A DNA stretch of 64,000 bases from Lentisphaerota bacterium (GCA_016873655.1 VGWI01000002.1:25357-89356), one strand, 5' to 3'; counted from the first letter of the stretch, positions 249 through 62,282 are shown. Numbers and translations are program-made. The notes: generated by a model from the letters alone, not told the origin.

Positions 249-480
249 GCCCGCTTCCTTTCTCCTTGTACCCGTAACCTTTTCCTTCCGTTTCACGGTG
301 CGCATTTCACACCGGACCCATTAGGCACGTGTGAGTGGCGTGTTAGAAATGAGTTAGCCCGGATTATTCATGAACGCTGCGCGTTCATTCACAACCGCCT
401 GCCGCGGTGCTGTGGCGCGACGCGGCCGGCTTCTGCTAAGCTGCGCGGCGCGCTCCGGCGCCTTCGGGGGAGGACCAGGC

Positions 481-954
481 ATGATACTGACGGACATTGA
501 CAGACTCGGGGTCGAGGCGCGCAACCTGCCCGCCTTGAACACGGCGCTGGCGTGGCTGAAGGACGCCGCGCGCCGGCCTCCGCAGGACGGCCGTGTGGAA
601 CTGGACGGGTCCCGCGTCTTCGCGATCGTTCAGACGTACACAACAAAGGACCCGGCGGCGCCTTTGAAGTTCGAGGCGCACAGGAAGTACGCGGACATAC
701 AGTTCATTCTTGCCGGACGGGAACGCTGCGGATGGGCGCCGCTGAACGCGCTGGCTGCGACCACCCATTACGACGAGGCGAAGGACATCGTGTTCGGCGA
801 GGTGAAACCGGAGTCGCACGCGCTGCTGCCACTCGCCCCCGGACACGCGGCGGTGTTCTTCCCGTCAGATGCGCACGCCCCGGGGCTGGCGTGGGGAACG
901 CCGGACACGGTGCGGAAGATCGTCATCAAGATCGCCGCCGGGCTCCTGGCCTGA
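481..954 (+). CDS. YhcH/YjgK/YiaL family protein (DUF386; TabA/EbgC-like)
   Basis: The product MILTDIDRL...HRKYADIQFILAGRE...AAVFFPSDAHAP...VRKIVIKI is about 158 aa. Its motif spacing matches E. coli YhcH. The start is taken at the internal Met of ORF 370..954. Confidence 0.8.
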   Translation: MILTDIDRLGVEARNLPALNTALAWLKDAARRPPQDGRVELDGSRVFAIVQTYTTKDPAAPLKFEAHRKYADIQFILAGRERCGWAPLNALAATTHYDEAKDIVFGEVKPESHALLPLAPGHAAVFFPSDAHAPGLAWGTPDTVRKIVIKIAAGLLA

Positions 955-1678
955 CCGCCGGGGACGCGACACGCGGAACCGCCATGTACCGGCGCCGGTC
1001 ACGGTCGGGCAGCCGTTCTATCGCGTACCTGAGCATCGTCCGCGGCATGCGCGGGGCATGTCGGTCAAGGAAACCCCTGAGCGCCGACTCGTCCCGCTTG
1101 CCCGCTTCGCGCAGCATCCAGCCCGCGGCCTTGTGGATCAGGTCCTCGCGATCGGCCAGCAGCGCCTCGGCGATGCGCAGTGTTTCGCCGAACCTTCCGC
1201 GGCGGATGAACGCGAACGTGGCGACAATCGCTATCCTGCGCTCCCACAGGCAGCGGGACCGGGCAAGCCTGTCCAGGGTGTTCGTCGGCCTGGCGAGGAG
1301 CCATTCGCCGACTATGTTCGGCGCGGAAAGGTCAACCAGGTCCCAGTTATTCACGCGGTCAGCGTTTGCAAGGTAGGCGGTATATATCCGGCGGCGACAC
1401 CCGGCGTCTTCCCGCTCGAACAGCGCAACCCACACCAGCAGGCCGCACAGCCGTTCCTCATGCCAGGGAGAACGCAACAGGCAAAGGCCGTCGCCGACCG
1501 CGGCATCGCTCGTGAACCGCCTGACAACCGCCCTGAGCGCCGGAACGCGGATGCCGAGAAACCTGTCGCCCTCGCCGTATTCGCCCCGGCCGGTCTTGAA
1601 GAAACGCGCGAGCTGCACGGCGTCGGCCGGCGACGCCGCCTTCCTGAGCGCAAGCTTCATCTCGCCAGAAACACTCAT
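926..1678 (-). CDS. DNA alkylation repair enzyme (AlkD/AlkC-like HEAT-repeat glycosylase family)
   Basis: A 250-aa ORF with WNDxDxVD-like NNWDLVDLSAPNIVGEWLL and a WMLREAGKRD HEAT-repeat signature. It is convergent with the yhcH-like gene. Confidence 0.7.
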   Translation of the reverse strand: MSVSGEMKLALRKAASPADAVQLARFFKTGRGEYGEGDRFLGIRVPALRAVVRRFTSDAAVGDGLCLLRSPWHEERLCGLLVWVALFEREDAGCRRRIYTAYLANADRVNNWDLVDLSAPNIVGEWLLARPTNTLDRLARSRCLWERRIAIVATFAFIRRGRFGETLRIAEALLADREDLIHKAAGWMLREAGKRDESALRGFLDRHAPRMPRTMLRYAIERLPDRDRRRYMAVPRVASPAVRPGARRRS

Positions 1679-1695: not shown

Positions 1696-1872
1696 GCGCA
1701 CATTATTCATGAACCTTCTGCTGCGAGTGCACATGATACGTCACCTCATCGACTTACCTTGATGGCCGACTTTGGCGTGTGCCAACACGCCGCCATCCGG
1801 CCCTCTTCGGCAAGCCGTTGATCTGACGCACCCTGCGCCCTCTCGCGACGAAGAAACATGAATAATGTGCGC
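1696..1872. mobile_element. MITE-like 176-bp element, copy A, with 16-bp terminal inverted repeats GCGCACATTATTCATG / CATGAATAATGTGCGC
   Basis: It matches its own reverse complement at the ends, and is near-identical (2-3 differences) to the inverted copy at 27205-27380. It lies in the intergenic region upstream of phoB. It has an internal GGCGTGTGCCAACACGCC hairpin. Confidence 0.6.
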
Positions 1873-2207
1873 TTGATCCCGCCCCCGTGAAGCTCTCGTA
1901 CCGCAAGTCGGTCATCTTTGCCGTTTCGTCATCAGGCTCGACAACAGGGCGGGCGGCATTATGTCTTGCCGCCGCGAATCCGCGGGGTAGTCTGTGCGCC
2001 GTGACAGCGCCGGTCAAGAAATCAGGAGGCCCCCGCGCGAAACGGGGCATGACTCCAGGGGAGCGCGTGCTGGCCGCGATCCATTCCGCCAGGCCCGACC
2101 GCATTCCGGTGAACTGCCCGCCCGCGAAAAACGTTTTGGCCATGTGCGAAACTGCGCGCGAATCCGGCATGTGCCGGGACTGAGCCCGCGGAGAGAAGGG
2201 GAAAAGC

Positions 2208-2900
2208 ATGCCTGGCAAGGACATCCTCGTTGTCGAGGACGAGGCGGACATCGCCGCCATCCTCGCCCACAATCTTGAGCGCGAAGGGTTTTCAGCGTCG
2301 GTCGCCGCCGACGGCGAACAGGCTCTGAAAGCGGTGGCGCGACGAATTCCGGACCTGATCCTGCTGGACCTCATGCTGCCGCGCATGGACGGCCTGGAAG
2401 TGTGCCGCAGACTGAAACGCGACCCAGCCCACGCCGCGATACCGGTGATCATGGTCACCGCAAAGGGCGATGACGCCGATGTCGTCGTTGGCCTGGAACT
2501 GGGCGCCGACGACTACATTGTCAAGCCTTTCAGCGTTAAGGTGGTCTGCGCGCGCGTCCGGGCAATCCTGCGCCGGCGCGAGGAGCCGCCGGCCGGCGAA
2601 GGCAAGGATATCCGTATGCGCGACCTGGTCATCGCGCCAGGCCGCCACGAGGTAATGGTGAAGGGCAAGCCGGTTGAGATGACGGCTTCCGAACTGCGGA
2701 TTCTGCACCTGCTTGCGTCGCGGCCCGGAATGGTGCTTACTCGGCAGCAGATAATAGATTGCGTAAGGGGCACCGACTACGCGGTGACCGACCGCGCGGT
2801 GGATGTTCAAATCGTGGGGATAAGACGGAAACTGGGCGCGCTGGCGGACAGGCTCGAGACCGTACGCGGTGTTGGCTACCGGTTCAAGGAGCGGCAATGA
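2208..2900 (+). CDS. phoB: OmpR/PhoB-family response regulator (phosphate regulon)
   Basis: An REC domain (DLILLDLMLPRMDG, KPF) plus a winged-helix C-terminus (LTRQQI...VDVQIVGIRRKL...GVGYRF). It heads the pst operon. Confidence 0.85.
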   Translation: MPGKDILVVEDEADIAAILAHNLEREGFSASVAADGEQALKAVARRIPDLILLDLMLPRMDGLEVCRRLKRDPAHAAIPVIMVTAKGDDADVVVGLELGADDYIVKPFSVKVVCARVRAILRRREEPPAGEGKDIRMRDLVIAPGRHEVMVKGKPVEMTASELRILHLLASRPGMVLTRQQIIDCVRGTDYAVTDRAVDVQIVGIRRKLGALADRLETVRGVGYRFKERQ

Positions 2901-4693
2901 TGCGATTTTCCGGTTTCACGGCCCGCATGTACCTGCACTTCATCGGCGCCATGCTGGCGGTCGTCGCGTCGTCATCAATCTACAGCAGTTGCGAACTGCG
3001 CCGGTTCCGGGAAGGAAACCAGACCGGAGAACTGCAGCGCCATGCCTCCATGCTGACGATGATCCCCGCCATCGCGGACTCGAACGCCGACCCGTCCTCC
3101 ATCGACGCGGCATGCAAGGAGATCGGAAATAATACCGGTCTCAGGATTACGGTGATGGCCGCCGGCGGGCATGTCGTCGGCGATTCGCAATCCGACCCCG
3201 CCACGATGGACAACCACCTGGAGCGCCCGGAAATGAGGAAGGCCATGGAGGGCGGGATCGGGGTCTCCACGCGTTTCAGCGACACCACCCGCCGCCGCAT
3301 GTTGTACGTGGCCGCCCCGTTCGGAGCCCCCGGGAACCCGCGCGGCGTTGTCCGGGTGTCGGTCGCCGTGGAGAACCCGGACCCCGGCTTCGCCTCACTG
3401 CGGTCACACATGCTCGCCTCAACAGCCCTGGCGGCGGCCCTGTTCGCCGTCGTGGCCGCGTTCCTGTCGCGCAGAATAACCGGCCCGATCGCTTCCATCT
3501 GCGGCGCGGCGCGCAGGCTGTCGTCAGGCGACCTGGCCGCGCGCTGCGCGGTCCCGGCCGACACGGACCTCAAGAACCTGGCCGATGCCTTCAACGGAAT
3601 GGCCCGCCAGCTCGGGGAGCGCATGGAAACAATCGCCCGCCAGCACAACGAGCTGACAACCGTGCTTGAAAGCATGTCCGATGGCGTGCTCGCCGTGGAC
3701 GCGGCGGAAAGAGTCATCGAGGTCAACCGCTCCGCGGCCGCGCTGCTCGATATAGACCCGGCCATGTCCAGGGGCCGCAGCATCCAGGAAGTCGCTCGCA
3801 ACCCCGAGATGCAGAACCTTGTCGCGGCAACGCTTCGAGGCGCTTCGGCTGCGGAAGAAACCGTCATCCGCTTCGGGACCAGCGACCGGTTCCTGAGGGT
3901 CACTTCCGCGCCGCTGGTTGACCGTGAGTCGCGCACCATCGGCGCAGTCGTGGTTTTCAGCGACGTCACCAGGATGAAGAAGCTGGAGACGGTCAGGCAG
4001 GAATTCGCGGCGAACGCCTCGCATGAGCTCAAGACCCCCGTGACGGCCATCCGCGGTTGCGTCGAAACCATGAAGGACTCGTCCTTGACCCCGGAAGAGA
4101 CGCGCAGCTTCCTGGATATGCTGGATCGCCATTCGGTCAGACTGGATACGCTGGTCAACGACCTCCTGAACCTGTCGCGCATCGAGCATGACGCCGGGAC
4201 CCGCAGCATAGCGATGGAGCCGGCGCGCGTTCGGGACATCCTTCAGAAAGCCTGCGACTCGTACGCCGAAAGAGCCGGCGCCAAGAACATGAGTATCCTG
4301 CTTGAATGCCCCGACGCCCTGTCCGTGAACGCGAACCCAGGCCTCCTGGAAGAGGCGATCGGCAACCTCCTGGACAACGCGATCCGGTATTCGGGTTCCG
4401 GCTCCCCGGTGCGTGTCGAAGGCAGGCTCGCCGGGCCGGGCAACGTTGAGCTGCTGGTAAAGGACGAAGGTCCGGGCATTGAGGCGAAGCACCTCGATCG
4501 GATATGGGAACGCTTCTACCGGGTTGACCCGGCCAGGAGCCGCAGCCTGGGAGGCACCGGGCTGGGACTGTCCATCGTAAAGAATATCGCCGTTGCGCAC
4601 GGGGGAAAGGTCAGGGCCGAAAGCGAACCGGGTAAGGGTTCCAAGTTCGTGATTTCAATGCCGGGCAGACGGGCCGAAACGTGGGAGTTGTAG
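2897..4693 (+). CDS. phoR: sensor histidine kinase (PhoR-like; periplasmic sensor, HAMP, PAS, HisKA, HATPase_c)
   Basis: The ATG at 2897 overlaps the phoB stop (ATGA). It has two TM segments flanking a domain of about 150 aa, an H-box SHELKTPVTAI, and N/G1/G2 boxes (LLDNAIRYS, DEGPGI, GGTGLGLSIV). Confidence 0.8.
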   Translation: MMRFSGFTARMYLHFIGAMLAVVASSSIYSSCELRRFREGNQTGELQRHASMLTMIPAIADSNADPSSIDAACKEIGNNTGLRITVMAAGGHVVGDSQSDPATMDNHLERPEMRKAMEGGIGVSTRFSDTTRRRMLYVAAPFGAPGNPRGVVRVSVAVENPDPGFASLRSHMLASTALAAALFAVVAAFLSRRITGPIASICGAARRLSSGDLAARCAVPADTDLKNLADAFNGMARQLGERMETIARQHNELTTVLESMSDGVLAVDAAERVIEVNRSAAALLDIDPAMSRGRSIQEVARNPEMQNLVAATLRGASAAEETVIRFGTSDRFLRVTSAPLVDRESRTIGAVVVFSDVTRMKKLETVRQEFAANASHELKTPVTAIRGCVETMKDSSLTPEETRSFLDMLDRHSVRLDTLVNDLLNLSRIEHDAGTRSIAMEPARVRDILQKACDSYAERAGAKNMSILLECPDALSVNANPGLLEEAIGNLLDNAIRYSGSGSPVRVEGRLAGPGNVELLVKDEGPGIEAKHLDRIWERFYRVDPARSRSLGGTGLGLSIVKNIAVAHGGKVRAESEPGKGSKFVISMPGRRAETWEL

Positions 4694-5607: not shown

Positions 5608-6467
5608 GACAGGACAGGATCATCAGGTTCATTCTGATGCTCGTCGCCTTCTCCGCCATCGCCGGCCTGGCGTTGATCGCCTTCTTCATCTTCAAGGAGG
5701 GCGTGCCGCTGATATTCCAGGTCGGATGGCGCGACTTCTTCCTGTCATCCGAGTGGCATCCGTCGGAAGGCCTCTTCGGCGTGTTCGCGATGATCATGGG
5801 CACACTCATGGTAACCGCCGGCGCCATGCTGATCGGCGGCGTGTTCGGGCTCAGCCTGGCGATCGTGATGACCCAGTTCTCCGGGCCGCGGCTGGCGGGC
5901 GCGCTGAAACCTGTCATCGAACTCCTGGCCGGCATTCCCTCGGTCGTCTACGGGTTCATCGGCGTGAAAACGATTGTCCCGCTCATACGCGACCACCTCG
6001 GCGGGCCGGGACTTTCTGTGCTCGCCTGCTCGATTGTCCTCGGCGTGATGGTGCTTCCCACCGTCGCAAGCATCTCCATTGACGCTTTCCGGGCCGTGCC
6101 GCGTTCGTTCTGGGAAGGCTCGCTCGCCCTCGGCGCCACACGGTGGCAGACAACGTGCATGGTGATGCTCAAGGCCGCCAGGTCCGGCCTTGTTGCCGCG
6201 GTCATCCTCGGCATGGGCAGGGCCGTCGGGGAAACAATGGCGGTCATCATGGTGGCCGGCAATTCGCTTGCCATCCCCGACAGCATCCTGGCACCTGTCC
6301 GGACGCTCACGAGCAACATCGCGCTGGAAATGGGGTACGCGTCCGGATTGCACCGCAAGGCGCTCTTCGCCGCCGGCGTCACGCTCTTCGTCATCATCAT
6401 GATCCTGAACACGGCAGCCATCACCCTTTCGTCAAACCGCGCGCGGGCGAAGGGAGGCGCGAAGTGA
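5604..6467 (+). CDS. pstC: phosphate ABC transporter permease PstC
   Basis: A 6-TM permease with an EAA-like loop. It overlaps the pstS stop. Confidence 0.85.
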   Translation: MRQDRIIRFILMLVAFSAIAGLALIAFFIFKEGVPLIFQVGWRDFFLSSEWHPSEGLFGVFAMIMGTLMVTAGAMLIGGVFGLSLAIVMTQFSGPRLAGALKPVIELLAGIPSVVYGFIGVKTIVPLIRDHLGGPGLSVLACSIVLGVMVLPTVASISIDAFRAVPRSFWEGSLALGATRWQTTCMVMLKAARSGLVAAVILGMGRAVGETMAVIMVAGNSLAIPDSILAPVRTLTSNIALEMGYASGLHRKALFAAGVTLFVIIMILNTAAITLSSNRARAKGGAK

Positions 6468-7300
6468 GGCTCTCGCCAGCCGCATCGCAACGCGCCGCCG
6501 TGGCGGTCATGTGGACAATGACGGCCGCAACGATCGGCGTTCTTGCCTTTGTCATTCTCTACGTCCTTGCGCGGGGACTCCCGCACGTCACGTGGGAATT
6601 CCTCAGCCGCGCGCCCGAAAGCATGGGCCGCAGGGGCGGCATATTCCCCATGATCGTCGGGACACTGGCGGTTTCCGGCATGGGCGTGCTCATATCCGCG
6701 CCGATAGGCGTGGCAACGGCCATCTACCTGACCGAGTACACGCGCAAGGGCATGCTGACCACGATCATACGCTTCGGAGCCGATTGCCTCGCCGGCATCC
6801 CGTCCATCATCTTCGGCCTGTTCGGGTTCGTGTTCTTCGCCGTCGGCCTCGGCATGGGCCTCTCAATTCTCTCGGGCGGCCTGACGCTCGCGCTGATGGT
6901 GCTTCCAACAATCATCAGGACCAGCGAGGAAGCAATCCGCGCGGTGCCGCAGTCGTTCCGCGAAGTGAGTTTCGGCCTGGGCTGCACGCGCTGGCAGACG
7001 GTTCTCTTCGTGGTGCTGCGCTCGGCGCTGCCGGGCATAGGAACCGGCATCGTCCTCTCACTCGGACGCAGCATCAGCGAAACAGCCGCCGTCATGCTGA
7101 CCGCCGGTTCGGCCATGGGCCTCCCGCAGTCCCTTTTCGATTCCTCCCGCACACTCGCCCTGCACTTCTATATCCTCGCGCGCGAAGGACTCCCCATGTC
7201 CAAGGCCTACGCAACCGCCGCCGTCCTCATAGTGGCCATGCTCGGATTGAACCTGCTCGCATACGGGCTGATGAAACGTTTTCACGCGAAGGCGAGGTAA
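6464..7300 (+). CDS. pstA: phosphate ABC transporter permease PstA
   Basis: GTG at 6464 overlaps the pstC stop. The product VRLSPAASQRAAVAVMWTM... is a PstA-type permease. The long ORF 6143.. upstream is out of context. Confidence 0.8.
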   Translation: MRLSPAASQRAAVAVMWTMTAATIGVLAFVILYVLARGLPHVTWEFLSRAPESMGRRGGIFPMIVGTLAVSGMGVLISAPIGVATAIYLTEYTRKGMLTTIIRFGADCLAGIPSIIFGLFGFVFFAVGLGMGLSILSGGLTLALMVLPTIIRTSEEAIRAVPQSFREVSFGLGCTRWQTVLFVVLRSALPGIGTGIVLSLGRSISETAAVMLTAGSAMGLPQSLFDSSRTLALHFYILAREGLPMSKAYATAAVLIVAMLGLNLLAYGLMKRFHAKAR

Positions 7301-7303
7301 GGT

Positions 7304-8074
7304 GTGACTGAACAGCCGGCAAAACCGATGATGGAGACGCGGGGCCTGACCGTGCGCTTCGGCAACGCCGTCGCGCTGAAGAACATCTCTCTGGAGGTCC
7401 GCCGGAACGAGCGCCTTGCCATAATCGGTCCGGCACGCAGCGGGAAAACCACCTTCCTGCGCTGCCTGAACAGGCTCAACGACTTCGATCATGACTACAG
7501 CCGCTCCGGCGACATACTGCTCGACGGAACCGATATCCACGGCCCGGAGATGGACGTCGTCGCGCTCCGCAGGCGCATCGGAATGGTCTACGCCGTGCCG
7601 GTCCCGTTGCCGTGGTCAATCCGCGAGAACATCACCTACGCGATGAGGATGGCGGGCATCCGCAACCGCCGCGTACATGCCGAAAAGGTCGAGTCCTCCC
7701 TGAAACTGGCAGGGCTGTGGGATGAAGTGAAGGACCGTCTCGATTCGCACGCGCAGGACCTCTCGGGCGGACAGCAGCAGCGGCTCTGCCTCGCCCGCGT
7801 TCTCGCGCTCGAGCCCGAAGTGCTGATTCTGGACGAGCCCTGCTCCGGGCTGGACCCCATCTCCACCGCGCGAATCGAGGACGTGCTCGAGGAATTGAAG
7901 GCCCGCCAGTCCATCGTGCTGGTCACGAACAACACCATGCAGGCCTCGCGCGCATCCGACCGCACCGCGTTTTTCCTGATGGGCGAACTCGTCGAGGTCG
8001 GCGAGACGAAACAGCTCTTCACCGCGCCGCGGGAAGAGAGAACAAACGACTACCTGACAGGACGCTTCGGATGA
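7304..8074 (+). CDS. pstB: phosphate import ATP-binding protein PstB (copy 1)
   Basis: An ABC ATPase with Walker [10 protein letters not shown], signature LSGGQQQRL and Walker B ILILDEP. N-terminal [11 protein letters not shown] is PstB-like. Confidence 0.9.
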
Positions 8075-8838
8075 CGGACAACGGACAGGTGAAAATCAGA
8101 ACAGAGCGGCTGAACCTCCATTACGGCGCGTTCCACGCCCTGAAGGATGTGGACATGGCCGTGCCGCCGCGCATGATCACCTCCATCATAGGCCCGTCCG
8201 GGTGCGGCAAGTCCACTCTCCTGCGCTGCCTCAACCGCATGAACGATCTCATAGGCACCGCGCGCGTCACGGGCCGCATCCTGCTGGACGGGAAGGACAT
8301 CCTTGCCGGCGGCACGGCAATGACATCGCTGCGCCGCAGGGTCGGCATGGTCTTCCAGCGCCCGAACCCGTTCCCGCTGTCGGTCTTCGACAACGTGTCA
8401 TACGGGCCGCGCGTGCACGGCGAGCTGGACCGCCGCCGCCTTGCCGGAATAGTCGAGTCCGCCCTGCGCGCCACCGGCCTGTGGGAAACACTGAAGGACA
8501 GGCTGAACGAGCACGCCCTCTCGCTCTCGCCGGAACAACAGCAGCGCCTGTGCATCTCGCGCCTGGTAGCCGTCGAACCGGAGGTCCTTCTGATGGACGA
8601 GCCCTGCTCGGCCCTTGATCCGATCGCTACGGGCCATGTCGAAGACCTGATGAAGAACCTCGCACAGAACTACACCATCGTCATCGTAACGCACAACATG
8701 CAGCAGGCGGCCCGTGTTTCCGATGTCACCGCCTTCATGTACCTCGGCAGACTGATCGAGTCCGGCCCCACGAAGGACATATTCGTCAAACCGAAGGAAA
8801 AACAGACCGAGGACTACATCACGGGGCGCTTCGGCTGA
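8071..8838 (+). CDS. pstB: phosphate import ATP-binding protein PstB (copy 2, tandem paralog)
   Basis: Walker [10 protein letters not shown], signature LSPEQQQRL and Walker B LLMDEP. It overlaps copy 1 by 4 nt. Confidence 0.9.
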
Positions 8839-25559: not shown

Positions 25560-26384
25560 GTGGACATCTCTTTCACCAAGATGCACGGCGCCGGCAACGA
25601 CTTTATCGTTGTTGACGACCGCGACGGGACGTTCCCGGAAGCGGACCGGGCCTGGATCGCCGGCATCTGCGCGAGGAACACCGGTGTCGGCGCGGAAGGC
25701 GTCATCCTGGTGCGCCGGTCGGACACGGGCGATGCCGCAATGCGCTTTCTCAATCCGGACGGACGGTCCGCCGAGTTCTGCGGCAACGGCGCGCGCTGCG
25801 CCGCGCGCTTCGTCTCCCGCATGAGCAACGGCAAGTCCGCAATCCGCCTTGAGACGGATTCGGGCCTGCTGAACGCGGAGGCGGGCGAAGATGTCGTCTG
25901 GATTGACATGCCGCGCCCGTCGGGACTGCGCCTGAACGAGAACCTGGCCGCGGGGGATGGAATGCTCACTTGTCACCGGGTCACGGTCGGTGTTCCGCAC
26001 GCGGTGATTGTTGTGGATGACCTCGCGGGCGTTGATGTGGCTGGCACAGGGCGCTCGGTCCGCATGCACGCGGCATTCGCGCCGGCCGGGACCAACGTTG
26101 ATTTCATCGCCCCGTCCGGCCGTTCATCTCTCTCGATCAGAACCTACGAGCGCGGAGTCGAGGCGGAAACCGGGGCCTGCGGATCGGGAGCGGTTGCGGC
26201 ATGTCTGGCTGCCGCGCGGCTTGGGTTGATCGAACTGCCGGCAACGGCCCGCACCCGCCTCGGTTACGAGCTGTCCGTCGCCGCCGAAGCCGCCGGCGAC
26301 TCGTTCGACCGCGTCCGGCTCGGCGGCACGGCGGAGTATGTGTTCGCCGGAACCGTCCGCTACGGAAAGGAGTTCCCGCGTTGA
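25560..26384 (+). CDS. dapF: diaminopimelate epimerase
   Basis: MHGAGNDFIVVDD, an active-site Cys context FCGNGARC, and a second-domain GSGA motif. Confidence 0.85.
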   Translation: MDISFTKMHGAGNDFIVVDDRDGTFPEADRAWIAGICARNTGVGAEGVILVRRSDTGDAAMRFLNPDGRSAEFCGNGARCAARFVSRMSNGKSAIRLETDSGLLNAEAGEDVVWIDMPRPSGLRLNENLAAGDGMLTCHRVTVGVPHAVIVVDDLAGVDVAGTGRSVRMHAAFAPAGTNVDFIAPSGRSSLSIRTYERGVEAETGACGSGAVAACLAAARLGLIELPATARTRLGYELSVAAEAAGDSFDRVRLGGTAEYVFAGTVRYGKEFPR

Positions 26385-27151
26385 GGATAGCGACGTTCAA
26401 CGCGAACTCCGTGCGGTCGCGGCTGGATATCATCACTGCATGGCTCGGGAAGCATGAGCCGGACGTGCTGTGCATCCAGGAAACGAAGGTGCAGGACCCG
26501 GACTTCCCGGCAATCGCCTTCTCCGGCATCGGCTATCACGCCGTGTTCCGCGGAGAGAAGTCCTACAACGGCGTCGCGGTCCTCTCGCGCCTGAAGCCGG
26601 ATGATGTGAGTTTCGGGCTGAACGACGGCGAACAGCCGGACGAGACCCGCCTCGCATACGCAAGGTTCGGCCGCCTGCACGTTGTCAACACGTACGTGCC
26701 GCAGGGACGCGAACTGGACCACCCGATGTACGCCTACAAGCTGCGCTGGCTGAAGCGGCTGCGTTCGTGGTTCGACCGCCGGTTCTCGCCGCGCATGCAG
26801 GTGGCATGGTGCGGCGACATGAACGTCGCCCGGGAGCCGGCCGACGTGCACAACCCGCAGGAGCAGTCAGGCCACGTCTGCTTTCACGAGGACGTACGCA
26901 AGGCATTCGCGGAGGTAGTCGACTGGGGGTTCGTCGACGTGTTCCGGAAGCACCACCCCGGGCCGGGCGCGTATTCGTTCTTCGATTACCGTATGCCAGG
27001 GGCGGTTGACCGCGGACTCGGATGGCGGGTCGACCTGGTCATGGCCTCAAAGCCACTTGCGAAACGCTCAACCGCGTGCTTCATAGACCTCGACCCGCGC
27101 CGCGCCGAACGCCCGTCCGACCATACCTTCGTCGTCGCCGACTTCGAATAG
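26381..27151 (+). CDS. xth: exodeoxyribonuclease III (Xth family AP endonuclease)
   Basis: A TTG start overlapping the dapF stop. The product MRIATFNANSVRSRLD...CIQETK...DHTFVVADFE matches the EEP nuclease family. Confidence 0.8.
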   Translation: MRIATFNANSVRSRLDIITAWLGKHEPDVLCIQETKVQDPDFPAIAFSGIGYHAVFRGEKSYNGVAVLSRLKPDDVSFGLNDGEQPDETRLAYARFGRLHVVNTYVPQGRELDHPMYAYKLRWLKRLRSWFDRRFSPRMQVAWCGDMNVAREPADVHNPQEQSGHVCFHEDVRKAFAEVVDWGFVDVFRKHHPGPGAYSFFDYRMPGAVDRGLGWRVDLVMASKPLAKRSTACFIDLDPRRAERPSDHTFVVADFE

Positions 27152-27204
27152 CCGTCCCTGCCTCGCGGCCGCCGTGGCGCGCCCCGCGGGTCACGCCGGC
27201 GCTA

Positions 27205-27380
27205 GCGCGGATTATTCATGTTCTTCGTCGCGAGAGGGCGCAGGGTGCGTCAGATCAACGGCTTGCCGAAGAGGGCCGGATGGCGGCGTGTTGACACACG
27301 CCAAAGTCGGCCATCAAGGTAAGTCGATGAGGTGACGTATCATGTGCACTCGCAGCAGAAGGTTCATGAATAATGTGCGC
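27205..27380. mobile_element. MITE-like 176-bp element, copy B (inverted relative to copy A)
   Basis: Its reverse complement matches 1696-1872 with 2-3 mismatches. The terminal repeats are GCGCGGATTATTCATG ... CATGAATAATGTGCGC. It abuts the rhaB stop codon. Confidence 0.6.
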
Positions 27381-28888
27381 TAAACTCCGCAGATTCCGCG
27401 GAACCTGGCGTATGCCTGCTCCCACGCGCCGGGGTCGCGCGGCTTGTATGTCCTGATCGGGAACGCTTTCCGGATCAGCGGCTGGGCGTCGGCCATCGAA
27501 CGGATAACCCCCATCCCCATGGCCTGGACCATCATGTTGCCAACCGCCGTCGCCTCCTCCGGCCCGGCAAGCACGGGCAGCCCGAGGCAATCGGCGGCAA
27601 ACTGGTTCAGCAGCATGTTCCTGCTTCCGCCTCCGACAATATGAACCACCTTCGTCCGGCCGTTGCAGGCCGCGCATATCTGCTCGTTCACAAGCCGGTA
27701 CTTCAGGGCAAGGCTCTCGTAGACGACGCGCAGGAACGTGCCCCTGTCGGCCGGAACCTTCTGGCGCGTGCGGCGGCAGAACGCCGCTATCGCCTTCTCC
27801 ATGTCGGCCGGGTTGTAGAATCCGGTATCGTCCGGATCCACAAACGCCGTGAAAGCCGGGGCTTTCTCCGTCATCTGGTCAAGCACGCTCCACGCGGGCT
27901 CCCTGCCGTCTTTCGTCCGCCAGACACGCCGCAGTTCCTGCACGAGCCACGTGCCCATGCAGTTCTTCAGGAACCGCGTGTTGCCGATCCCGCCCTCGTT
28001 GCTGATGTTGCAGGCCATCGCGGCTTCGGAGGTGATGGGGTTCGCGACCAGTTTGCCAACGAGCGACCATGTGCCCGAACTGATGACCAGCGCTTCCGCC
28101 GGGTCTGACACCGGCGCGGCGGCAAAGGCGGACGCGGTGTCGTGCGACGCCACGGCAACCAGAGCAGCCCGGCTTACGCCGGCGGCTGAGGCCAGGCCGG
28201 CATGCAGACGCCCCACCTTCGCGCCGGGTTCGACGATCCGCGGCATGATGCGTTTCGGAATGCCCAGAGCGCGGAGAATCTCCCCGCTCCAGCAGTGGCG
28301 CCGCGCGTCCATCAGCTGCGTAACGCTCGCCCACGATGAGTCCACGCAGCGCGCGCCGCCAAGGTAGTAGTAGAACAGCGACGGCACAGGCAGGTAGAAG
28401 CACCCGGGGTTCAGCCACCCGCCCCGGTTCTGCATGAACCACAGAAGCTGGTTGCTGACGTTGAACGGCTGGAAGTGGACGCCCGTGATCCCGTAGATGC
28501 GCTCCGGGGCCATCCGTTTCTTCACCTCATCAACCATGCGGTCAAGCCTGTGGTCGCGGTAGCAGTACATCTTCCCAAGCGGATCGCCGTCGGCGGTCAT
28601 CATCTGCCCGTCGGCGCCCCATGTGTCTATGCCTATTGAATCCAGCGAGCGGCCTTCGCTGCGCCCGAACTCCTCGAGACCAAGCAGTATGTTGCGGTAG
28701 AGAAGAGTGTCGTCCCAATGCGCGCGCTCGGCGAGCCGTCCCTTCGCGTCCGCGACGCGGAAGGTCACGCCTTCGTGCGGGAAACGGTGCACCTCGCGCA
28801 TGGAGAAACCGCCCCGCCCGATCGTTCCGGCAAAGCACTTTCCGCCGGATGCGCCAAGATCAACCGCAAACAGACGCGCCTTCTTCAC
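27380..28888 (-). CDS. rhaB: rhamnulokinase (FGGY kinase family)
   Basis: The motifs AVDLGASGG, IGIDTWGAD, VASHDTASA, SSGTWSL, NISNEGG, LKNCMGTWL and HIVGGGSRNMLLNQFAADC match E. coli RhaB nearly motif for motif. Confidence 0.85.
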   Translation of the reverse strand: MKKARLFAVDLGASGGKCFAGTIGRGGFSMREVHRFPHEGVTFRVADAKGRLAERAHWDDTLLYRNILLGLEEFGRSEGRSLDSIGIDTWGADGQMMTADGDPLGKMYCYRDHRLDRMVDEVKKRMAPERIYGITGVHFQPFNVSNQLLWFMQNRGGWLNPGCFYLPVPSLFYYYLGGARCVDSSWASVTQLMDARRHCWSGEILRALGIPKRIMPRIVEPGAKVGRLHAGLASAAGVSRAALVAVASHDTASAFAAAPVSDPAEALVISSGTWSLVGKLVANPITSEAAMACNISNEGGIGNTRFLKNCMGTWLVQELRRVWRTKDGREPAWSVLDQMTEKAPAFTAFVDPDDTGFYNPADMEKAIAAFCRRTRQKVPADRGTFLRVVYESLALKYRLVNEQICAACNGRTKVVHIVGGGSRNMLLNQFAADCLGLPVLAGPEEATAVGNMMVQAMGMGVIRSMADAQPLIRKAFPIRTYKPRDPGAWEQAYARFRGICGV

Positions 28889-29796: not shown

Positions 29797-30330
29797 ATGA
29801 CAGGCCGACAGTTCTACGATTGGCAGACCGGCGGCGGCGGGGACGACGTCATGCGCATGGTAAACGCGCTTGAGCGATCCGAGCTGCCTTGGTGTGCCAT
29901 TGGAGGAGTGGCCGTCAATCACTGGGCCAGAGAGCCCATGGTTACGCGGGACGTTGATTTTGTTGTCGCCGTTGACCATGTTGAGAGGGCTGTGGACGCC
30001 ATGGCTGCAGCCGGGTTCAAGGCCGAAAGGCACGAATGGTCCATCAACTTCACCGGCAGGTCACAAGTCAGCATGCAGCTCAGCACCGAGGACTTCTACC
30101 GCGAGTTCCCGTCGCGCTCGGTTCCGGCGGATGTCCACGGCATTCTGTTGAGAGTGGCGTCTCTCGAAGACACGCTTGCGGGCAAGATCAAGGCATGGAG
30201 CGACGCCGCGCGGCGTCCGAGCAAGCACATCAAGGATCTGGGCGATATCGCCCGTTTGGTTGAGGCGCACCCGCGGCTCCAGTCCGCTCTCCCAGGCAGT
30301 GTCCGAAAGGCGCTTGAAGCAAACACCTGA
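29797..30330 (+). CDS. minimal nucleotidyltransferase-fold protein (MNT/AbiEii-like; uncharacterised)
   Basis: An NTase signature, GGVAVNHWAREPMVTRDVDFVV (GG...T.D.D), plus a C-terminal helical region. It is on the opposite strand to the flanking rha genes. Confidence 0.45.
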   Translation: MTGRQFYDWQTGGGGDDVMRMVNALERSELPWCAIGGVAVNHWAREPMVTRDVDFVVAVDHVERAVDAMAAAGFKAERHEWSINFTGRSQVSMQLSTEDFYREFPSRSVPADVHGILLRVASLEDTLAGKIKAWSDAARRPSKHIKDLGDIARLVEAHPRLQSALPGSVRKALEANT

Positions 30331-37356: not shown

Positions 37357-39183
37357 ATGAAACGCCTTGCTATGGCAGCCGTCTTCTTCGCCGGCCTCGC
37401 CGCCGCGATGGAGCTTTCAGATCTTTCGCCCGAAGCGAGGAAGCTCTTCCCGGAAGAGCGCGAGGGAATAGTCGAGCTGCCGGACGGCGCAACGGTCCGC
37501 GGCATCGTTGTCCAGGACACGCCAGCGTCCGTCGTGCTCAAGACGCGCAAGTCGGACACGGTTACCATGTCGCGCGAGTACAGGCGGGCAGACATCAAGT
37601 CCTTCCAGTATCTCGACATCGAACCGGCGTTCGCGGCCGTCCTGCTCGACATGGAACTCGACGAGGAGAACAGCCTGCCGCTGGAGGACCTGGACCGCGC
37701 CGTCGCCCTCTTCGACGAGTTTCTCGCCAAAGCCGCGCCGCGCGCGGTGGACCGCCAGGCCGTGACGGAGAAACGCGCGCTGCTCGCGGACGAGCTGGAA
37801 AAAGTCCGGCGCGGCTGGGAGAAGATCGAGGGGGCCTGGCTGGCCCCGGTCCAGGCCGCCGTGAAGAGATTCGACGTGTACACACGCCGCATAGGCGAAC
37901 TGGAGAAGAGGGCTGACTTCAAGACCAACCCGAAGGTGTCCCAGGCGCGCGATGACCTCGTGGAGAAACGGCGCGCCACGGCAAGGGCGCTCCCGGGAAT
38001 GATGCAGACTAGGGTGCCGGAACTGGTCGGGAAACGCGCATTCGATGAGGTGGTCGACGAAATGGGCGCGTTCATGAGTTTCTGGATCAAGCAGGTTGTA
38101 CGCACTGAAGGCCCGGCCGCGAAAGTGATGGGCGAGATGGATTTCGACTACATCATGCGCCTGCAGAACCAGATCATGGATGCGTACCGCGCCTCCGGCA
38201 TCGGCACCACCATCACCCGCATGCCCCCGCAGGCGAAAGACATGGTCTACGTGCCCGGCGGCTATTTCCTGATGGGGCGGCGCGACGCAAAACCGAACGA
38301 CCCGGCTTTCCCCATGCACTTCGTCTATGTGCCGCCGTTCCTGATGGACAAGTACGAGGTGAGCAACGCCGAGTACCGGCGGTTCGTCGAGCACGTGCGC
38401 GCCACCGCCGACTCCTCGATGGAACACCCGGACGCGCCGCCGCTGAAGAGCCACGACCCGGACGGATGGACAAGGCCCGAACTGGGCAAGGACCGGCAGC
38501 CGGTCGTCGGCGTGGACTGGTTCGACGCCTACGCCTACGCCAAGTGGGTCGGGAAGTCGCTCCCGACCGAGGCGCAGTGGGAGAAAGCCGCGCGCGGGCT
38601 CGACGGGCGCCTCTACCCGTGGGGCGACGACCCGCCGGAGAAGACGGCCGTGAACTTCGCGCCCGGCCGCGAATTCCTGGCAAGGGAGATCGACCGGCAG
38701 AAACCGCCGCCCCCGCCGCCGCCCCCGCCGCGCTTCGGCTGCGGCTGCATAGCGAAGAACGAGGAACCGCCGCCCCCGCCGCCGCCCACGGAGCTGAAGG
38801 CGGCCACGTACGACGTTGACAAATCGCTGCCGGCGCTCGCGCTTGAGCTCAAGGCGGGCGAGATGTTCGAGTGGAGCAAGGAATACCCGAGCCCGTACGG
38901 AGTTCTCCACATGGCCGGCAACGCGGCGGAATGGGTGCTGGATGGCTACGAACCGGCCTTCTACGGCGAATCGCCAGTTCGCAACCCGCTCGCGGCCGCC
39001 GGGCCCAATTCGCCGCGAATTCATCGCGGCGGGTCCTACCTGTCCCGGAATCCGGACGACCTGAAGACCTACTCGCGCGGTATTGCCACAGGAGAGAAGG
39101 AGAAGTCCGGGAACGACGCCGGCGGACGGCCAATGGTCGGGTTCAGGTGCGTGAAGAACCTGGATATCGCGGGAGGCAACTGA
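37357..39183 (+). CDS. secreted FGE/SUMF1 (formylglycine-generating enzyme)-domain protein with poly-proline inserts
   Basis: A signal peptide and an N-terminal helical region of about 290 aa. The FGE-sulfatase domain includes YVPGGYFLMG, VSNAEYRRF, GVDWFDAYAYAKW and RGGSYL. PPPPPPPPRFGCGCIAKNEEPPPPPPP is inserted in the domain. Confidence 0.8.
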   Translation: MKRLAMAAVFFAGLAAAMELSDLSPEARKLFPEEREGIVELPDGATVRGIVVQDTPASVVLKTRKSDTVTMSREYRRADIKSFQYLDIEPAFAAVLLDMELDEENSLPLEDLDRAVALFDEFLAKAAPRAVDRQAVTEKRALLADELEKVRRGWEKIEGAWLAPVQAAVKRFDVYTRRIGELEKRADFKTNPKVSQARDDLVEKRRATARALPGMMQTRVPELVGKRAFDEVVDEMGAFMSFWIKQVVRTEGPAAKVMGEMDFDYIMRLQNQIMDAYRASGIGTTITRMPPQAKDMVYVPGGYFLMGRRDAKPNDPAFPMHFVYVPPFLMDKYEVSNAEYRRFVEHVRATADSSMEHPDAPPLKSHDPDGWTRPELGKDRQPVVGVDWFDAYAYAKWVGKSLPTEAQWEKAARGLDGRLYPWGDDPPEKTAVNFAPGREFLAREIDRQKPPPPPPPPPRFGCGCIAKNEEPPPPPPPTELKAATYDVDKSLPALALELKAGEMFEWSKEYPSPYGVLHMAGNAAEWVLDGYEPAFYGESPVRNPLAAAGPNSPRIHRGGSYLSRNPDDLKTYSRGIATGEKEKSGNDAGGRPMVGFRCVKNLDIAGGN

Positions 39184-62208: not shown

Positions 62209-62282
62209 GCGGGCGTTGCTTAGTGGTAAAGCGTCAGCCTTCCAAGCTGATGACACGGGTTCGATTCCCGTCGCCCGCTCCA
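62209..62282 (+). tRNA. tRNA-Gly (anticodon UCC)
   Basis: The cloverleaf was folded by hand. The acceptor is GCGGGCG/CGCCCGC. The D-stem is GCTT/AAGC. The anticodon stem is TCAGC/GCTGA with loop CTTCCAA. The T-arm is ACGGG-TTCGATT-CCCGT. The discriminator is U, and CCA is encoded. Confidence 0.85.

Follow-up and report, generated by a model that had tools for sequence, protein, structure and literature searches.

A 175-bp palindromic MITE dispersed across bacterial phyla has its ends in common with IS1380-family elements

Most described bacterial MITE families belong to one genus, and MITEs are among the least catalogued bacterial mobile elements. Several of the described families are palindromic, including Correia/NEMIS in Neisseria, ERIC in enterobacteria, RUP in pneumococcus and Nezha in cyanobacteria; their members are 100–200 bp long, non-coding and intergenic, occur in many copies and form long hairpins. 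Elements of the IS1380 family are, according to ISfinder, about 1.55–2.0 kb long, with one ORF, CC-initial ends and a 4–5-bp target duplication. The family includes IS1380, ISEcp1 and IS1247, and the last of these is 1672 bp long, with 16/13-bp terminal repeats and a 5-bp duplication (PMC3281130). IS1380 transposases also serve as the prokaryotic outgroup of piggyBac (PMC10813416).

Here we describe a MITE that is present in two copies in a 64,000-nucleotide stretch of DNA (hereafter the window) from a Lentisphaerota MAG, itself derived from metagenome assemblies. In length, lack of coding capacity, intergenic position, copy number and long hairpin, it resembles the palindromic MITEs named above; it differs from them in its end sequence, in a 4-bp YTAR duplication where theirs is TA, in occurring in many phyla where each of theirs is limited to one genus or family, and in having an identified IS1380 partner family. 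Its terminal repeat matches that of 1.64–1.84-kb NF033539/PF13701 elements found in this work, and its duplication is likewise short (4 bp), but the window MITE is without a transposase, has only 15–16 nt per end in common with these elements and has a long-hairpin interior, which IS1380 insertion sequences do not have. The ends of the IS1380 family are CC-initial (consensus CCCG), whereas the window copies begin CGCAC and CGCGG, of which only the first C fits. A 4-bp duplication at a TA-centred palindromic target is also a property of piggyBac, for which the target is TTAA; that of the MITE, YTAR, includes TTAA but is degenerate and extends even to CTTG. CCC ends are likewise found both in piggyBac and in the consensus of the MITE family, although the window copies begin CGC.

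Two copies of the element and their insertion sites

Comparison with other family members places copy A at positions 1697–1871 (175 bp, minus strand) and copy B at 27206–27379 (174 bp, plus strand). The strands refer to the family 'R' orientation and were assigned with nhmmer and an oriented family profile: for copy A, the minus strand scores 72.8 bits and the plus strand 11.8, and for copy B, the plus strand scores 79.2 bits and the minus strand 20.0. As the preliminary description had it, the two copies are near-identical and lie in opposite orientation. Copy A matches the reverse complement of copy B at 171 of 175 positions, and the three substitutions and one 1-nt indel that separate them comprise a C/T difference in the apical hairpin, an indel of A, and GT versus CC in one terminal repeat. 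The location originally given for the copies (1696–1872 and 27205–27380) was correct, with exact ends that took in one duplicated target base per side; in the same way, the 16-bp terminal inverted repeats reported there do exist, but their outer G/C belongs to the duplicated target.

The left terminal repeat of copy A, CGCACATTATTCATG (1697–1711), is the perfect complement of the right one, CATGAATAATGTGCG (1857–1871), at 15 of 15 positions, and the repeats of copy B are complementary at 13 of 15. CGCACATTATTCATG agrees at 12 of 15 positions with CCCGSATTATTCATGA, the consensus of both the family and its IS1380 partners, and the ends of the window copies (CGCAC.../CGCGG...) depart from the insertion-sequence consensus (CCCGS...) at two to three positions. 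With up to three mismatches, the terminal-repeat pattern occurs eight times in the window, against 0.38 occurrences expected by chance. A profile search of the window returned the two full copies, which had been listed at the outset, and one isolated terminus, which had not. This terminus (354–376, plus strand), which reads TTAG followed by CCCGGATTATTCATGAACG (nhmmer E = 3e-5), belongs to a second subfamily, and no partner end was recognized for it. It is intergenic and lies upstream of a DUF386 gene; a listed ORF (370–954) opens at an ATG inside the isolated repeat, and the true DUF386 start is the ATG at 482 (157 aa in contig L120; in the long ORF, the Pfam domain does not begin until residue 38).

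The absence of coding capacity, also claimed at the outset, holds. Family members differ in length (150, 164–166 and 178–180 nt) by non-multiples of 3, which argues that the element has no coding capacity, and the ORF across copy A that we scanned (1754–2458, minus strand) has no Pfam match; the remaining ORFs listed across copies A and B appear to be spurious. A small-peptide reading was considered and rejected: the ATG of the repeat opens ORFs of 16–51 codons, and by inspection their frame is not kept between subfamilies. Rfam has no match, at gathering or E-value thresholds, on the element in the window or at four loci, and the sole sub-threshold match is an unrelated fungal snoRNA (E = 0.17). 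A tRNA gene at 62209–62279 (plus strand; 75 bits) is the sole Rfam match in the window.

Copy A sits between divergent genes, a DNA-alkylation-repair gene (926–1678, minus strand; Pfam PF08713; 250-aa protein) and a gene for an OmpR-type response regulator (2208–2900, plus strand). The 'R' orientation of the copy is that of the repair gene, the start codon of which lies 18 nt beyond the element; the ribosome-binding site, AAGGGGGAAGG, directly follows the element, and the better-folding strand of copy A coincides with the sense strand in the 5′ leader of this gene. A PAS/HAMP histidine kinase is encoded with the response regulator near copy A, within 2208–4693. Farther along, the segments 7419–7482 and 8183–8246 are 72% alike (repeat family D2); our guess is that the stretches within 7419–8246 are paralogous ABC-type ATPase genes, in which case a phosphate (Pho/Pst)-like locus may lie near copy A.

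Copy B sits between convergent genes, an Exo_endo_phos gene (26201–27151, plus strand) and a rhamnulokinase gene (27380–28888, minus strand), both designated by their Pfam/NCBI names. Near the rhamnulokinase gene and aldolase genes, the gene table of contig L124 includes a 177-aa protein with an AbiEii domain (29797–30330, plus strand), a toxin-like nucleotidyltransferase domain known from abortive infection. Two 29-nt copies of AGRAACCGCCGCCCCCGCCGCCGCCCMCG, 63 nt apart and 93% identical (repeat family D10), lie at 38699–38790 and are probably a repeated Pro/Gly-rich coding motif.

A search for target-site duplications had been proposed at the outset, and both copies have one of 4 bp. That of copy A is a perfect direct repeat, CTTG at 1693–1696 and again at 1872–1875, and is off-consensus relative to YTAR. 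The duplication of copy B is imperfect, with CTAG at 27202–27205 and CTAA (plus strand) at 27380–27383, and the rhamnulokinase stop codon TAG (minus strand) falls within the right-hand target.

An exact-sequence lookup of the repair protein led to four other contigs. One of them (L120) has the element as the window does, and two (L121 and L122) terminate inside it; the fourth (L123; ENA ERZ27245471) encodes an identical 250-aa DNA-alkylation-repair protein next to a precise empty site. L123 reads ...GGGATCAGGGGGGAATGCAGAGCATG, and the window (reverse strand) and L120 read ...GGGATCAAG followed by the 175 bp and then by CAAGGGGGAAGGCAGAGCATG. The 4-mer is single in the empty site, where it reads CAGG on the other strand with one SNP, and double in the filled allele, which shows a 4-bp duplication and recent insertion or precise excision. 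Copy A was inserted or excised recently, as the flanking protein is still identical across the population, and the empty site is compatible alike with an element that was never inserted and with one that was precisely excised. A further contig, L124, found through the kinase, breaks off within copy B, 27 nt beyond the rhamnulokinase stop codon. Of the five additional contigs retrieved through the genes flanking the copies, three (L121, L122 and L124) end inside or at the element.

A dispersed family and its IS1380-family partners

We scanned a genome collection with the pattern ATTATTCATG-N(130–160)-CATGAATAAT and obtained at least 119 loci. Together, 121 scan matches and the two window copies gave 123 extracted sequences, of which 110, among the matches listed, have GC-rich family-type ends; the family therefore has at least 110 members, and the further copies that the preliminary description had proposed to count extend beyond one genome. 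The other 13 sequences look like chance, and a hand estimate puts chance matches at roughly 20. The family consensus runs from CCCGSATTATTCATGA to TCATGAATAATSCGGG and is flanked on either side by (Y)TA(R).

The members listed span about 12 phyla. Carriers among the matches listed are Nitrospirota (many), Planctomycetota, Verrucomicrobiota, Acidobacteriota, Gamma- and Zetaproteobacteria, Myxococcota, Desulfobacterota, Bacteroidota, Krumholzibacteriia, Rubrobacter and Thermobaculum, according to MAG labels, which can err (two contigs are filed under Klebsiella). Pelagicoccus sp. SDUM812005 is the one record among these matches that bears neither a MAG nor an isolate-bin label. One long-read Pirellulaceae MAG contains more than 20 loci, and the closest relatives of the window copies among the matches listed come from a Verrucomicrobiota MAG, at 73% identity. 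A main subfamily comprises at least about 90 members, the window copies included, and 27 full-length copies of the main type are present in 646 kb of metagenome loci. Other subfamilies have only the ends in common, with unrelated interiors. Two of them, a 150-nt type (L015, L035, L046, L063, L073 and L113) and a GGGTGG type (L093, L101, L115 and L118), form hairpins too, with one strand folding better. No neighbouring gene recurs in the 119 loci listed, and the contexts of the copies are mutually unrelated.

A blastn search of a plasmid collection (E ≤ 10) gave chance matches only, and of six exact 16-mer matches in viral contigs, five fall in coding DNA by chance and the sixth is a 236-bp element. 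In the literature, the terminal-repeat strings were found only as primers, and searches for MITEs together with Nitrospira, YTAR or IS1380 returned no description of the family. Judged by Rfam, the plasmid collection and the searchable literature, this MITE family is apparently undescribed; the kind of element is well known, and the spread of the family over about 12 phyla is far wider than supposed.

The flanks of the family define its target. In a pooled set of 171 short elements (L001–L256), 83 have perfect 4-mer duplications, including CTAG/CTAG in 40, CTAA/CTAA or TTAG/TTAG in 30 and TTAA/TTAA in 9. We considered an IS630-type duplication of TA alone, as read from flanks of the form (C)TA/G...C/TA(G), which predicts that a left xTAG is paired with a right CTAx. 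This model is ruled out by the counts of non-palindromic direct 4-mers, which far exceed the pairs expected were these bases part of the inverted repeat; because such 4-mers are common, we place the duplication at 4 bp, with YTAR as the preferred target. About half of the duplications in the family are imperfect, which exceeds the prediction from simple decay. Single mismatches in the 171 short elements are skewed: 22 have G/C as the element-adjacent base and differ in the outer base, compared with 6 of the opposite pattern, and the skew is reversed in the few full-length insertion sequences (3 versus 0). The skew in the short elements could arise if a transition extends the stem or if a donor flank base is carried over, as in piggyBac.

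A scan of metagenomes for the consensus end CCCGSATTATTCATGA yielded at least 120 loci. Among the metagenome matches listed, nine pairs of ends lie 1644–1837 bp apart and have YTAR flanks. These nine long elements (L177, L180, L188, L204, L212, L213, L233, L239 and L250; ends CCCGGATTATTCATGA) begin with CCCG or CCTG and each contain one long ORF of about 450–475 aa. Their flanks are CTAG/CTAG, CTAA/CTAA or one-off variants of these, with a perfect 4-bp YTAR duplication in 4 of 10. In length, single ORF and 4-bp YTAR flanks, they fit the description of the IS1380 family.

We scanned four of the nine ORFs and identified each of these four as an IS1380-family transposase. They match PF13701 with E-values of 1e-109 to 1e-152, and two of them score 395 and 334 bits against the equivalog model NF033539, which has a cut-off of 180. 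No IS5 or IS630 model scored in any of the four, and PF01609 appeared only as a weaker secondary match. An IS5-like enzyme had been expected beforehand because YTAR is the IS5 motif; this candidate fits the target but was rejected, as the enzymes encoded by the scanned elements with these ends are of the IS1380 type. The four transposases are 36–49% identical in pairwise comparisons and are associated with the same 16-nt ends, and this association of divergent enzymes with the same ends explains how the ends are conserved across phyla. Beyond these 16 nt, the autonomous insertion sequences have nothing in common with the MITE. A further member of the clade, P0208, has ends CCCCCATCATTCATGA and occurs at two different sites, with CTAG on both flanks; more than 7,900 protein clusters match at E ≤ 1e-30, mostly on contigs of insertion-sequence length.

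A transposase gene flanked by the same repeats, which the preliminary description had proposed to look for, is thus present in IS1380-family elements of other metagenomic contigs, and the likeness of the ends identifies IS1380 as the cognate enzyme family of the MITE. In the 64-kb window, tblastn found no IS1380 homologue, as is expected for a MITE. One 8-kb block from a Chromatiales symbiont contains both an IS1380-type transposase remnant (L066:500–1084) and a MITE of the family (6362–6541).

We modelled a partner transposase (pLDDT 72, pTM 0.75) and compared it with solved structures, of which the Tn5 transposase was the best match (E = 2e-7), followed by the weaker match to piggyBac (6x67; E = 6e-5). 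Sequence searches of the PDB, with a single sequence or with a profile, gave no piggyBac match for the transposase, and the link to piggyBac is seen only in the fold search, behind Tn5.

A 16-mer resembling the terminal repeat near an ISNCY transposase (L021) provided another candidate enzyme. We checked this lead by protein search and at six loci and rejected it: the insertion sequence begins at TGTAGATAGCA and has a long duplication, and the 16-mer is flanking DNA. This ISNCY-type element of Nitrospira (L125–L130 and L021:1–1105), with ends TGTAGATAGCA...TGCTATCTACA, is itself very abundant and encodes a 420-aa transposase with more than 8,000 related clusters. Its duplication is about 17 bp in L125, and the copy in L021 has an in-frame TGA.

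The whole-length hairpin

An internal hairpin had been noted in the preliminary description. It is present, at 1774–1791 (GGCGTGTGCCAACACGCC), but its extent was underestimated, because it is merely the tip of a hairpin formed by the whole element, which is an imperfect palindrome well beyond these 18 nt. The tip corresponds to the conserved apex of the family, GGCGTAYT...ARTACGTCGAGG, in which a G.U pair is kept in 22 of 29 sequences. Folded as RNA, copy A has an MFE of −79 kcal/mol on the plus strand (z −9) and of −105 kcal/mol on the minus strand (z −12).

We aligned 29 sequences of the main subfamily with less than 90% pairwise identity, and RNAalifold predicts a stem over the whole length of this alignment. 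In these sequences, 90% of cells are paired, compared with 73% in column shuffles and 31–41% when the partner is slid; compensatory changes have altered both sides in 33 of 46 pairs, and the observed pairing values were reached by none of 500 shuffles. The two strands are not equivalent. In the orientation defined by homology (5′ ...TTCGTCGCGA ... GCAGCAGAA... 3′), almost every member folds 10–30 kcal/mol better, and an energy-free count of mismatches between the arms gives 187 G.T against 122 A.C (29 elements versus 10, p = 0.003, for copies that share ancestry). Because the members are not phylogenetically independent, part of this strand bias may be inherited.

Near-invariant internal motifs outside the ends (TCGTNGCGA, GCAGYAG and AGGCGTA...TACGTCGAGG) are found across phyla. 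The internal loops are conserved as well; near the ends they comprise a C.A mismatch and a bulged A, and at the apex a G.U pair. Among the matches listed, at least 10 phyla retain the hairpin, the internal loops and the strand preference. Beyond nucleotide 16, the autonomous insertion sequences have no arm complementarity and none of the internal motifs; the fold therefore belongs to the MITE and is not an inherited transposase-binding region, and transposase binding does not explain the internal conservation or the strand-biased hairpin. The most likely role of the whole-length hairpin would be to aid the mobilization or persistence of the main subfamily. That the main subfamily goes further and encodes a functional structured RNA or single-stranded DNA form, which would make it more than a passive hitch-hiker, is an idea we put forward tentatively and consider unlikely; such a form may, for example, recruit or regulate the transposase, or may have been adopted by the host for the processing or stabilizing of transcripts.

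Probable mobilization by IS1380-family transposases and alternative readings

The element is very probably a 175-bp non-coding, fully palindromic MITE mobilized by IS1380-family transposases. The preliminary description had called it a recently mobilized non-autonomous transposable element, and this is supported by the terminal repeats, the target-site duplications, the empty site in L123, the large dispersed family of at least 110 members and the ends in common with IS1380 elements. The agreement of the ends suggests mobilization in trans by an IS1380 enzyme, for which similarity in fold to Tn5 and piggyBac transposases would predict cut-and-paste chemistry. A DDE transposase of the IS1380 family, supplied from elsewhere in the cell, would bind both terminal repeats and then excise the MITE, which would be integrated through a 4-bp staggered cut at (C/T)TA(G/A) or at near-cognate sites such as the CTTG of copy A. 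With TAG or TAA inside the target, stop codons would often be hit exactly, as in the case of copy B.

The conservation of the hairpin also raises the prospect that the element is primarily or additionally a structured-RNA gene or a functional single-stranded DNA hairpin that spreads on IS1380 ends, with a fold that regulates neighbouring genes, processes or stabilizes transcripts, or aids its own transposition. The strong covariation, the better folding of one strand in nearly all members, the excess of G.T over A.C mismatches and the retained G.U pair all speak for this reading, although the shared ancestry of the members weakens the argument from strand bias. The internal motifs, near-invariant across phyla and absent from autonomous insertion sequences, point in the same direction, but other subfamilies that have these ends in common are unrelated in their interiors. 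Rfam has no match at its thresholds, and simple consensus scans detected neither a sigma-70-like promoter nor an intrinsic terminator in the element. The well-folding strand of copy A is sense in the 5′ leader of the downstream gene; in general, however, the genomic contexts are unrelated to one another, and the copies are not co-oriented with flanking genes. In tandem contexts, 15 copies are sense and 30 antisense, and convergent contexts number 23 and divergent ones 10; the orientation result is weak, because it derives from crude longest-ORF gene calls that mis-call copy A of the window itself. On balance, we regard this reading as improbable, although less so than any of those that follow.

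A MITE of another superfamily, either IS630/Tc1-mariner (TA duplication, CTAG target) or the IS5 group (YTAR, 4 bp), is very improbable. Flanks that are mostly CTAG or TTAG resemble a TA duplication at first sight, but CTAA/CTAA and TTAG/TTAG are common, few pairs are of the kind that a TA model predicts, and four bases are duplicated rather than two. YTAR is the duplication motif of IS5 (PMC10359306), yet the four ORFs scanned from the nine full-length elements are all of the IS1380 type, and the two tested against NF033539 score far above its cut-off. One locus with similar ends does contain an IS630-family transposase gene (L141:3161–4856; NF033545, PF13358), placed between a good and a weak terminal repeat with CTAG/CTAG flanks; its ends are weaker and it looks like a nested insertion, probably of an IS630 element in a MITE-like element. 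Only the slightest probability attaches to a REP/REPIN-like palindrome moved by a RAYT (an IS200/IS605-like single-strand transposase) or to an integron attC-like site. The whole-length imperfect palindrome with its preferred strand recalls such elements, but REP/RAYT and attC systems have neither a target duplication nor DDE-type terminal repeats, whereas this element has a 4-bp duplication, a precise empty site and ends that match IS1380; moreover, no neighbouring gene recurs in the 119 loci listed, and the copies are dispersed rather than arranged in cassette arrays. The duplicated regulatory segment of the host that the preliminary description had offered as its alternative is just as remote and is already contradicted: copy A does lie in a region of divergent promoters and immediately precedes a ribosome-binding site, but copy B lies between convergent genes, the sequence occurs in about 12 phyla in unrelated contexts, and a sister strain is without the element at the same site.

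As a MITE very probably mobilized by IS1380-family enzymes, the element belongs to a family that its ends tie to one IS1380 clade and that has hosts among Nitrospira, planctomycetes, verrucomicrobia, Lentisphaerota, acidobacteria and several proteobacterial classes. It breaks short-read assemblies, as seen in three of the five flank contigs, and it generates spurious ORFs, such as the one that opens in the solo terminal repeat (370–954). Because it inserts on stop codons and beside ribosome-binding sites, the expression of neighbouring genes can change. The family constitutes a natural data set on target choice by IS1380 enzymes, the bacterial relatives of piggyBac, and on why non-autonomous elements evolve long hairpins.
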